Origin: an uncultured delta proteobacterium | GTDB lineage: Bacteria > Myxococcota_A > UBA9160 > SMWR01 | Assembly (NCBI GenBank): GCA_963832165.1 | Contig: CAWHTE010000007.1 | Location: 608,001-672,000, forward strand | Direction: 5' to 3' | DNA: 64,000 nucleotides | Shown: positions 56,429 to 62,331 of the stretch, in pieces | How the letters are laid out: each line of letters begins with the position of its first letter | How positions within the stretch are numbered: the stretch's first letter is position 1 | Made by a program: the position numbers and the translations under genes | Notes under the pieces: generated by a model | Database searches by the model: none | Told to the model about the DNA's origin: nothing | What the model saw: only the letters and a program-made list of their open reading frames with translations

Positions 56429-57859
56429 CTACTCTCGCCTTTCCCCCACCATCCCGTCGAGTCGCGCGCACAACGCCTCCACCTGGTAGCGCAGCGGTGC
56501 GCTCTCCAGGATCCGGCGCTCCACCTTGCGCACCGCGTTCGCCGCCGCGGAGTGGTCGCGGCCGAGCGCCGCGCCGATCTCCGACAGCGAAGAGCCCGTG
56601 TAGCGGTGGCACAGAAACATCGCGAGCTGGCGCGGCAGAAGCACGTCGCGGCGCCGCGAGCGCGCGGCGAGCTCGTCGGCGCGCTGCTTGAAATAGGCCG
56701 CCACCGTCTCCACCACGTCGCGGATCGCGAGCGGGTGCCGAAGACCCGGGATCGGCGCGAGCTTGCGCAGCGCGACCAGCGTGAGCTCGACGTCGATCGG
56801 GCGCTTGAGCAGCGACGCCGTCGCGACGAGCTGGATCAGCACGCTCTCGAGGTCGCGCACGCTGCCGCGCACCGATTCCACGATCATCTCGCGGCAACGG
56901 TCCGGCAGGCGAACGCCGCCGTCGGCCGCGCGCTGGCGCAGGATCTCTCGCCGCACGATCGCATCGGGAGCCTCGAGCTCGGCGACGAGTCCGGAGGAGA
57001 TCTTCGAGCGCAGCCGGGGGTCGAGCCCCTCGAGGTCGCGCGGCATGCGGTCGGCCGTGAGCACGACACGCGCCCCGACGTCGAGCAGGTGGCACAGCGT
57101 GTGGAAGAGCTCGAGCTGGGTCGCCTTTTTGCGCGCGTCGAGAAACTGCACGTCTTCGAGCACGAGCAGCCGGCATCCGTGGCGGAAGCGGCGCTTGAAC
57201 TCGTCGATGCGCCGCGACTGCAGCGAGCGCGTGAAGTCGTTCGTGAACGCCTCGGCCGAGGCGTAGATCGCGCGCGCTTCGCCGCACTGGCGCGCCTCGT
57301 TCACGATCGCGCGCGCGAGGTGGGTCTTGCCGAGACCCTGGGCGGCCGTGAGCACGAGCGGGTTCAGCGAGTGCTGGGTGCTGCGCGCGACCGCGAGCGA
57401 CGCCTCGCGCGCGAGCGCATTGCACGATCCGACCACGAAATTGTCGAATCGATACGGAAACTCGCGCTGCAGATCGGGCGCGGAGCACTGCCCGTTCCCG
57501 TTCACGGGCGGAGCCGCCGTGGGCTGGAGCCGCGGCACCGAGTTGGTCGGCGTGGGCGCCGGGTGTGCCTCGATCGGCGCACTTCGCAGCGGCGGCGCCA
57601 CCACGAGGTCCACGGCGACGGGCACGCCGGCCTCGGCTGCGGCGCAGCGCTCGATCTCGCTGAGAAAGCGCTCTCGTACGCGATCGCGGTGGAACGCGGT
57701 CGGGCAGCCCAGCGTCAGGCGATCGCCCGCTGCGCCGTCCTTCCGAGCATCGCCGCGCGGAACGAGCGGGCCGATCCACGCTTCCAGGGCGAACGGGGGC
57801 ATCTCGGCTCCGAGCCGGCGGAGGACGCCGTCCCAGAGCGTCGGGGGGGTGGTCTGCAT
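56429..57859 (-). CDS. DnaA-like protein (divergent paralog, all four domains)
   Basis: Domain I (LEAWI..L), YRFDNFVVG, NPL, GLGKTHL, LEDVQF, ELFHT, VRDLE, PRQLAM, GRDH. Confidence 0.9.
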   Translation of the reverse strand: MQTTPPTLWDGVLRRLGAEMPPFALEAWIGPLVPRGDARKDGAAGDRLTLGCPTAFHRDRVRERFLSEIERCAAAEAGVPVAVDLVVAPPLRSAPIEAHPAPTPTNSVPRLQPTAAPPVNGNGQCSAPDLQREFPYRFDNFVVGSCNALAREASLAVARSTQHSLNPLVLTAAQGLGKTHLARAIVNEARQCGEARAIYASAEAFTNDFTRSLQSRRIDEFKRRFRHGCRLLVLEDVQFLDARKKATQLELFHTLCHLLDVGARVVLTADRMPRDLEGLDPRLRSKISSGLVAELEAPDAIVRREILRQRAADGGVRLPDRCREMIVESVRGSVRDLESVLIQLVATASLLKRPIDVELTLVALRKLAPIPGLRHPLAIRDVVETVAAYFKQRADELAARSRRRDVLLPRQLAMFLCHRYTGSSLSEIGAALGRDHSAAANAVRKVERRILESAPLRYQVEALCARLDGMVGERRE

Positions 57860-58219: not shown

Positions 58220-58885
58220 TCAGTGGAGGTGGTGGCGGCCCCCTCCACTGCTCTCGAGCTCGAGTCGCTGGAACGAGAGCGCGCTCGCGAGCCGTGCGTA
58301 GCGCGCGGGGATGTCGTCGGCCTCGATCAGCGCCTGCTTCTCCTCGGTCGGGAACGCGAACGCGTTCGAAACGGCGTTGACGAAGGTCTCGTCGTCGACG
58401 CCTCCGAACAATTCCGGGTCGAATGCGTGCGATCTGTCGGGTTGGGCGTGGCGGATCAGGATGCCGACGTCCACGGTGATCCCGGCGCGCAGACGCGCCA
58501 CGCGGGCGCGCTCCGTCTCCGGATACGAATCCTCGAGCCGGACCACCCGCGCGACGCGATACAGGCGCGATTCGGTGCGCGGCTCCTCGGCGACGATCCG
58601 CACGCGATGCTCGCCGAGCAGCACGATGTTGTAGCGGCCGTCCGGCATGCGGTTCGATTCGGTGATCAGGCCCGAACACGCGATCGGGTAGACCGGCGGG
58701 TCGGCCGGCATCTCGTCGACGTGCTCGGGGCGCACGACCGCCATCGCGATCCGTCGGTCGGCCTGGAGCACGTCGCGGGCGAGCTGCCGGTAGCGGGGCT
58801 CGAACAGATGCAGCGGCGTCTTCACGCGCGGGAACAGCACCACGTTCGAAAGCGGGAAGATCGGCAGCAGCTCGGTCTCGCTCAC
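58220..58885 (-). CDS. LON peptidase N-terminal (substrate-binding) domain protein
   Basis: LPIFPLSNVVLFP...LHLFEPRY, DGRYNIVLLG, EKQALIE; no AAA+ or protease domain. Confidence 0.9.
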   Translation of the reverse strand: MSETELLPIFPLSNVVLFPRVKTPLHLFEPRYRQLARDVLQADRRIAMAVVRPEHVDEMPADPPVYPIACSGLITESNRMPDGRYNIVLLGEHRVRIVAEEPRTESRLYRVARVVRLEDSYPETERARVARLRAGITVDVGILIRHAQPDRSHAFDPELFGGVDDETFVNAVSNAFAFPTEEKQALIEADDIPARYARLASALSFQRLELESSGGGRHHLH

Positions 58886-58940
58886 GGCGTCACGTTACCA
58901 AAGGGGGTGCGTTCCGATCGGTTGACGGCTCCCGGCTGCA

Positions 58941-59362
58941 TTGGAAGACTCGCCGCACTTGGATCGAGCCACCGCGCGACGACTGATCGAGCGCCTCAAC
59001 CTCGACGCCGAGCGCATCTCGCGCCGATTCGGTCTGCAGTACCGCTCGATCACCGCGGAGCGGGTCGGTGTGCGCAGCCGCTACGGGGTCTGCTACGCGG
59101 ACGGCGCGATCAAGATCCGCCTGCGACACGCGACCACGGGCCGTCCACTCAAGTACTCGAGCCTCGTGAACACGCTCTGCCACGAGCTGGCGCACTTGCG
59201 GCACTTCAACCACGGGCCGCGCTTCAAGGCCTTCTACTTCGAGATCCTCGACTACGCGCGGGCGCTGGGCATCTATCGCCCCGGACGTCCGCAGGCCCCG
59301 CCCCGGTGGTATTACCGGACCCGCCTCCGCAGCGGGCCGTGCAGCTCAGCCTGTTCGGCTAG
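58941..59362 (+). CDS. WLM/SprT-like zinc metalloprotease; probable frameshift about 59340 (uncorrected ORF ends at 59396)
   Basis: YGVCY, IKIRLR, NTLCHELAHLRHFNHGPRF; alternative frame ends VQLSLFG*. Confidence 0.8.
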
Positions 59363-59385
59363 CGAGGCGCGCCCCGCCTGCCTCG

Positions 59386-59586
59386 TCAGGGAGTGAGCTG
59401 ATCGTACTCTTCGAGGGTGTTCGGACCCTCGTCCACCCGCGCGATCACCTGGTCGCACGCGATCGCCTTGTCGAGGATCTCCCGCACCAGGCCCTCCACG
59501 CTCAGCTCGTCGTACTCGGCCATCGCGTCTTCGAGCGCGGTGTCGGACACCGTGATCTCGAGAGCGACCTTGATCGTGACTGACAT
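59386..59586 (-). CDS. Small acidic hypothetical protein (66 aa)
   Basis: GAGGGA RBS; 16 D/E versus 4 K/R. Confidence 0.65.
   Translation of the reverse strand: MSVTIKVALEITVSDTALEDAMAEYDELSVEGLVREILDKAIACDQVIARVDEGPNTLEEYDQLTP

Positions 59587-60536: not shown

Positions 60537-62331
<1,795 letters not shown>

Follow-up and report, generated by a model that had tools for sequence, protein, structure and literature searches.

A bacterial WLM-type zinc metalloprotease domain with a conserved clamp-binding-type C-terminus: a candidate clamp-tethered protease in one class of Myxococcota

We describe here a small protein, encoded on the forward strand of the window (the whole 64,000-nucleotide stretch of DNA that was analysed), in which a zinc-metalloprotease domain is followed by a linker and by a C-terminal QLxLF peptide resembling those that bind the beta sliding clamp. 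On the basis of sequence comparison and a predicted structure, we class the domain as a bacterial WLM type and not as a Wss1 ortholog; the terminal architecture is real and well conserved among orthologs, and it is from this architecture that we infer a function. The reading we favor, tentatively and by analogy with Wss1 and SPRTN, is that of a clamp-tethered Wss1-like protease acting on DNA-bound or crosslinked proteins; it may thus be the bacterial counterpart of proteases that free replicating DNA from trapped proteins.

The C-terminal motif and the sliding clamp

The features of the gene and of its surroundings are as follows.

58922..58927, forward strand: TTGACG, likely the -35 element of a promoter belonging to the protease gene itself (candidate, from conservation of TTGAC)
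58959..59282, forward strand: zinc metalloprotease domain of the WLM/Wss1 fold, 108 residues with a net charge of +12 (start alignment, Pfam, and model of the G004 ortholog compared with 5xbn)
59091..59093, forward strand: Cys45 of the rim strand, invariant in 29/29 orthologs; an Asn in Wss1 (the position taken in 5jig by the Asn of GLN)
59181..59213, forward strand: zinc site H75-E76-x-x-H79-x5-H85, all four residues invariant in 29/29 orthologs, with the spacing of ScWss1
59283..59341, forward strand: disordered Pro/Ala/Arg linker containing a one-base deficit (best fit 59295-59303 by tail scoring; pLDDT 45-66 in the ortholog model)
59342..59362, forward strand: QLSLF clamp-binding-type motif, Gly and stop, one base out of frame in the assembly (ortholog conservation)
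58220..58885, reverse strand: stand-alone LON substrate-binding-domain gene, a divergent and non-obligatory neighbor (Pfam PF02190; 68/76 loci)
56429..57859, reverse strand: dnaA, sole copy in the assembly and apart from dnaN (adjoins the protease gene in 65/66 loci with enough flank)
59386..59586, reverse strand: acidic 66-aa protein without family assignment, a convergent neighbor (74/75 loci; 61/61 class genomes)

The zincin text IKIRLR...NTLCHELAHLRHFNHGPRF noted in the original prediction is present, read in the frame of the TTG codons at 58941 and 58959, and the HExxH of the metalloprotease begins at 59181. Alignment of the upstream regions of 80 loci indicates that the gene probably starts at TTG 58959 and not at 58941. 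In 64 of 79 orthologous loci TTGAC precedes the start by 28-62 nt, and a generic promoter scan returned no site above its threshold. The sequence encoding QLSLFG and the stop lies in a frame other than that of the zincin, so that one additional base is required to join the two; as assembled, the frame of the zincin extends to 59396 and overlaps by 11 bases the convergent ORF ending at 59386.

The protease gene was detected by genome search in 35 of 41 related genomes. Conservation of its C-terminus was determined in two sets of loci, which overlap in part and are drawn from related genomes that are not independent. The first set comprises the best 30 loci, one of which is the query. Each of the other 29 is an intact ortholog whose C-terminus conforms to Q[LR]x[L][FL], in strict QLxLF form in 25, and the Q and the fourth-position L are the only invariant columns of the tail. 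The second set consists of 80 named loci, mostly from Myxococcota/Deltaproteobacteria MAGs and with the isolate UBA9160 included; 79 were parsed and 3 run off their contig, leaving 76 complete ORFs. An ending of the QLxLF type, as had been expected of homologs, is present in all 76. The motif is preceded by a variable Pro/Ala/Arg linker of 15-86 residues and followed by 0-1 residues in 58 of the 76. Net charge of the linker is positive in 74/76 and the protease core has a median net charge of +10, a basicity that is inflated because high GC raises the Arg content.

Among the best 120 database proteins retrieved by a profile of the domain alone, the motif falls within the last 25 residues of 112 (strict form) or 116 (relaxed form). 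Among HExxH-bearing representatives of 50%-identity clusters, a set that includes fragments and tail-less distant relatives, the share with QLx[LM]F is lower, at 58 of 132. Shuffled tails contained the motif in 75 of 15,200 cases. The genome has 27,994 stop-to-stop frames no shorter than 100 aa, and QLx[LM]F lies within 6 residues of the end in just 2, the protease tail and a DinB-family gene; allowing 8 residues after the motif adds PurF. The fully conserved ending in both ortholog sets, set against the shuffled-tail frequency and the rarity of the motif genome-wide, indicates that the terminal motif is not due to chance.

A passage of PMC9690074 gives QL(S/D)LF at the C-terminus as the clamp-binding consensus, which the protease tail matches exactly, at the C-terminal end of a disordered segment. 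The tail thereby resembles the beta-clamp clients DinB, MutS, ImuB and Hda in both sequence and terminal disordered position, and differs in belonging to a protease, a kind of enzyme that the passages of PMC9690074 do not name among clamp partners. Within the source assembly (G000), QLALF or QLDLF is found in MutS, in two DinB-family proteins and in one ImuB-like protein. The HRL and MPMR residues of DnaN, which we take to line the peptide pocket of the clamp, are invariant in 26/26 copies. If the proposed interaction is correct, the protease would join the list of clamp partners, and because the motif fits the general bacterial consensus, the proposal is open to direct study in E. coli or in vitro.

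In 14 of 15 loci a PurF-type amidophosphoribosyltransferase (L175, G000:C3:423426-425039; also L177-L191) carries a conserved PQLSLF near, but at least 8 residues before, the C-terminus. Either this enzyme of purine synthesis is itself a clamp client or the motif serves another purpose in it. The presence of an equally conserved QLSLF in PurF of the same order means that the motif need not imply a role in repair. The protease tail might accordingly be a docking or structural peptide that is not, or not mainly, a clamp anchor for repair, with the enzyme being a housekeeping peptidase unrelated to DNA damage; this explanation draws on PurF and on the conserved gene block, which contains no damage-response genes. 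We consider it unlikely, since the tail is an exact match to the consensus at a C-terminus, since the motif ends a disordered linker of free length, and since within the genome this rare motif co-occurs with DinB, MutS and ImuB.

Distribution and genomic neighbors

Of the 58 genomes of the class, 53 contain a match to the family profile, a single one per genome apart from one split match, and 5 contain none. Among other genomes of the phylum 5 of 243 were matched, all weakly, and the two inspected proved to be tail-less canonical YgjP-like proteins. In four genomes examined, the protease gene is absent from an otherwise intact gene block that retains dnaA and the 66-aa gene.

The original prediction placed the protease beside a LON-N protein and a DnaA paralog. 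The former is correct, the divergent neighbor being a match to PF02190. The latter is not: a paralog is ruled out by the single tblastn match in the genome, the neighboring gene being its sole dnaA, and exactly one DnaA match was found in 40 of 41 genomes. This dnaA is uncoupled from the dnaN-gyrB-gyrA locus; dnaN (G000:C7:384045-385136) lies 280 kb away, ahead of gyrB and gyrA, with no dnaA at that position. No perfect DnaA box was found near dnaA or dnaN, and the GC skew is too weak for an oriC call.

The protease gene is divergent from this sole dnaA even in 7 loci that have no LON-N gene, and the class appears to be devoid of Hda (0/41 genomes above the cut-off), with YabA likewise unmatched in G000, an assembly that is 89% complete. 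In such an Hda-less class, a bolder reading would be that the clamp-tethered protease next to the only dnaA restrains re-initiation through cleavage of DnaA or of a protein that works with it. Clamp-dependent control of DnaA by Hda is textbook knowledge as presented in a passage of PMC9690074. A protease cleaving one particular replication protein (DnaA or the 66-aa neighbor) after clamp loading would fill the role of Hda or YabA, perhaps with LON-N serving as its adaptor; the separation of dnaA from dnaN is also in keeping with such a regulator. We nevertheless regard this explanation as rather improbable. The four genomes that have lost the protease keep both dnaA and the 66-aa gene. Unrelated genes show the same synteny, thiC being found in 55/66 loci and a cytochrome-c biogenesis gene in 43/56, and this general conservation of the block makes linkage to dnaA weak evidence. 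Wss1-type domains are described in a passage of PMC7782752 as promiscuous and as having no substrate pocket, which argues against a dedicated target. Finally, LON-N and the protease are lost independently: LON-N is retained where the protease is absent in G030 and G027, and an obligatory partnership is ruled out by the loss of each without the other.

Two of the neighbors merit description in their own right. In most of the class the LON substrate-binding-domain gene is co-oriented with dnaA and lies upstream of it. The 66-aa acidic protein is found as a single copy in all 61 class genomes, and its gene remains next to dnaA in genomes that have neither the protease nor LON-N; the protein had no match in Pfam or NCBIfam and is a candidate class-specific replication factor.

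Fold and family of the zinc-protease domain

In Pfam searches the window protein scored 39.6 bits with YgjP-like (PF01863), 34.8 with WLM (PF08325) and 21 with SprT-like (PF10263), the cut-offs being 26, 26 and 25.6 bits, respectively, so that the first two families are above their thresholds and SprT is below. All 29 family members match both WLM (at E<=0.001) and YgjP-like, and the protein is the sole PF01863 match in G000. The YgjP-like alignment is limited to profile positions 103-194 of 207. When the family profile was compared with the PDB, S. pombe Wss1 came out first (E 0.003). Residues H75, E76, H79, H85 and the active-site T72 are invariant in 29/29 orthologs, and the zinc site has spacing identical to that of H115/E116/H119/H125 in ScWss1 as given in a passage of PMC5557861. 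Matches in the ESM Atlas were confined to WLM/YgjP-like clusters from Myxococcota, and NCBI names one homolog a 'Wss1p-related putative metallopeptidase' and others 'M48 family metallopeptidase'.

We used an intact ortholog from G004, 91% identical in the domain, for structure prediction with AlphaFold2. The model has pLDDT above 90 in the domain, compared with 45-66 in the tail; it begins with a helix and has no counterpart of the first beta strand of Wss1. With this model, the top five Foldseek matches are all Wss1 (5xbn, TM 0.69/0.74, rmsd 1.7), and in VIA-align Wss1 is again best, with Z 15.2 and an rmsd of 1.8 A over 104 residues, followed at lower scores by S. pombe Wss1 (13.0), YbeY-like (9.0), selecase (8.5), the minigluzincin proabylysin (8.2), SPRTN (7.8) and the minigluzincin projannalysin (7.4). 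A sister subfamily with a Wss1-like GFN strand is related to the family at 99.7% by profile-profile comparison over 106 columns, and itself matches Wss1 at E 6e-8 and 2e-7. A tree of 58 rows (one dropped) and 112 columns, midpoint-rooted and with eukaryotic Wss1 left out, places its two canonical YgjP-like rows outside on a long branch (100/99) and resolves little else. The description of the domain as Wss1/WLM-like is thus supported by the predicted fold and the zinc site. In Pfam, YgjP-like stands 5 bits above WLM; homologs do end in QLxLF, and structure and, less firmly, the small tree favor the WLM type in spite of that ranking.

The position of YgjP-like as top Pfam family raises the question of whether the protein is a protease at all. 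The domain shares with YgjP-like, DUF45 and M48-annotated minigluzincins (PF01863; 4jiu, 4jix) the HExxH-x5-H core and a G-x-C rim strand, its YGVC resembling the WGSC of the canonical YgjP-like proteins L147 and L148, and its Pfam match to them exceeds the cut-off. E. coli YgjP is reportedly a UTP pyrophosphatase. A clamp-tethered, non-proteolytic hydrolase of this type could clean nucleotide pools at the fork, and a PurF with the same motif would suit such clamp-side nucleotide metabolism. This we consider quite improbable. The N-terminal half of the Pfam model is missing from the match, DUF45-type structures fall far below Wss1 in structural comparison (8.2 and 7.4 against 15.2), and the two canonical YgjP-like rows lie outside on their long branch in a tree that has no further such rows and no eukaryotic Wss1. 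The canonical examples L147 and L148 do not have the QLxLF tail.

The domain is closest in its predicted properties to Wss1, a DNA-dependent WLM-domain metalloprotease of yeast (5xbn, 5xbv, 5jig, 5ln5), with which it shares the fold, the HExxH-x5-H spacing, the IRLR strand, a Thr three residues before the first His, and the plan of a compact domain followed by a flexible tail that carries short docking motifs. It differs in being a bacterial and predicted protease with about 19-24% identity, in having no first beta strand in the model, in the replacement of the rim Asn by Cys, and in a tail that carries a QLxLF peptide instead of Cdc48/SUMO motifs; judged by conservation, ortholog tails contain no Cdc48- or SUMO-binding motifs, QLxLF being the only conserved one. 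With SPRTN/Spartan (6mdw, 6mdx) the shared logic is that of a zinc protease with a basic region and a disordered tail bearing a sliding-clamp peptide. The domain family is a different one (Z 7.8 to 6mdx; Pfam SprT-like under its cut-off), and the candidate, at 130-150 aa compared with 489 for SPRTN, has no zinc-binding subdomain, SH or UBZ; no conserved Cys or His follows the domain in the 29 orthologs, as would be needed for a zinc-binding subdomain of the SPRTN type. According to a passage of PMC9240642, the DNA-binding element of SPRTN is a basic region that follows the protease domain; a passage of PMC7782752 describes the PIP box of SPRTN as dispensable for recruitment to forks.

Our proposal of a clamp-tethered protease builds on the zinc ligands, the predicted fold, conservation of the motif, disorder and charge of the linker, and the conserved pocket residues of the clamp; from these we infer a restored frame, clamp binding, proteolysis, activation by DNA and the substrate. 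In this mechanism a minimal WLM zinc protease would be joined by its flexible basic linker to the QLxLF peptide, which would dock in the peptide pocket of DnaN, so that clamps at and behind the fork would raise the local concentration of the protease on DNA. The basic domain and linker would bind DNA and thereby switch on a protease of broad specificity, whose pocket-less zinc site would trim proteins crosslinked to or trapped on DNA, and a translesion polymerase or excision repair would then complete the process. Operation would be SPRTN-like, with protease and PCNA peptide, but built from a Wss1 domain. The action on DNA-protein crosslinks is suggested by analogy with those enzymes. The idea of a clamp-tethered Wss1/SPRTN analogue thus retains its WLM-like fold, zinc site and clamp-type motif, and has lost the DnaA paralog.

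Passages of PMC6219452 and PMC7782752 describe proteolysis of DNA-protein crosslinks as eukaryotic and their repair in bacteria as excision repair and recombination, and a literature search, with most subscription papers outside its reach, found none that reports a clamp motif on a WLM protease from bacteria. It is quite possible, though we would not yet call it probable, that a proteolytic route dedicated to DNA-protein crosslinks and coupled to replication exists in bacteria, in the form of a clamp-recruited Wss1-family domain encoded by a core gene of one Myxococcota class, along with a tailed second subfamily beside a SRAP gene. If this is true, bacteria have reached the SPRTN-PCNA solution from a different domain family and with a 15-kDa Wss1-fold protein, which would be the smallest test system for the switching-on of such proteases by DNA.

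The second subfamily (P0256, P0271) is a separate, Wss1-like one that also ends in QLELF, and in its one visible locus a SRAP gene lies directly downstream; this locus (L168:5001-6547) encodes a GFN-type WLM protein, more Wss1-like, with the QLELF end directly upstream of the SRAP/YedK gene. The tree gives neither a common nor a separate origin for the two QLxLF-tailed subfamilies. Within the class no co-occurrence of SRAP with the protease is evident: SRAP is present in 53 of 61 genomes, four of them protease-less, and six protease-bearing genomes have no SRAP. A further GFN-type WLM family (P0243, P0268, P0272-P0302) is tail-less, ends in GIYxP and is often fused behind other domains. A search of viruses found 2 relatives only, both distant and tail-less.

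The frame break and the assembly

A potential concern with the terminal motif in the window is that it is read out of frame with the domain. The original prediction had restored one base at about 59340. We placed an X at each trial codon and scored the read-through product against the 30 nearest tails; the one-base deficit itself stands, and its location shifts, as a break at 59295-59303 gave a mean score of 73-75 compared with 58 at 59340. The later break retains WYY, which is atypical of these linkers (W 0.2%, Y 0.0%), and the best-fitting site coincides with C runs. The absence of this base probably reflects a fault of the assembly, an indel being suggested by comparison of the sequences. 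Frame changes were found in 4 of 34 genes relative to G001, gyrB and thiC included, in a two-genome comparison that has no third-genome control, and the single dnaN of the assembly does not have the MPMR end found in 29/29 other copies. Frameshifts in thiC (window 60537-62293, reverse strand), gyrB and dnaN mean that gene calls in this assembly need care.

Sequencing runs were screened for the source genome, and the best shared 0.11 of its words. Four read runs aligned at 80% yielded one 151-nt contig of depth 2 that spans 59261-59411 and differs by 6 substitutions and 2 gaps, a deletion at 59372 being among the gaps; the equal lengths imply one inserted base, the position of which is not given by the contig. 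That the frameshift is instead real in the source genome, this copy (and not the family) having lost its clamp tail as a step toward loss of a dispensable gene, is very improbable: the protease gene is absent in some relatives and the closest read set is as distant as stated, but the motif and its stop codon are preserved without a flaw, the best-fit break is at C runs, and the assembly has the frame changes relative to G001 (no third-genome control) and the dnaN that lacks its MPMR end, as described above. Programmed frameshifting was ruled out, the gene being in frame in 76/76 complete orthologs.
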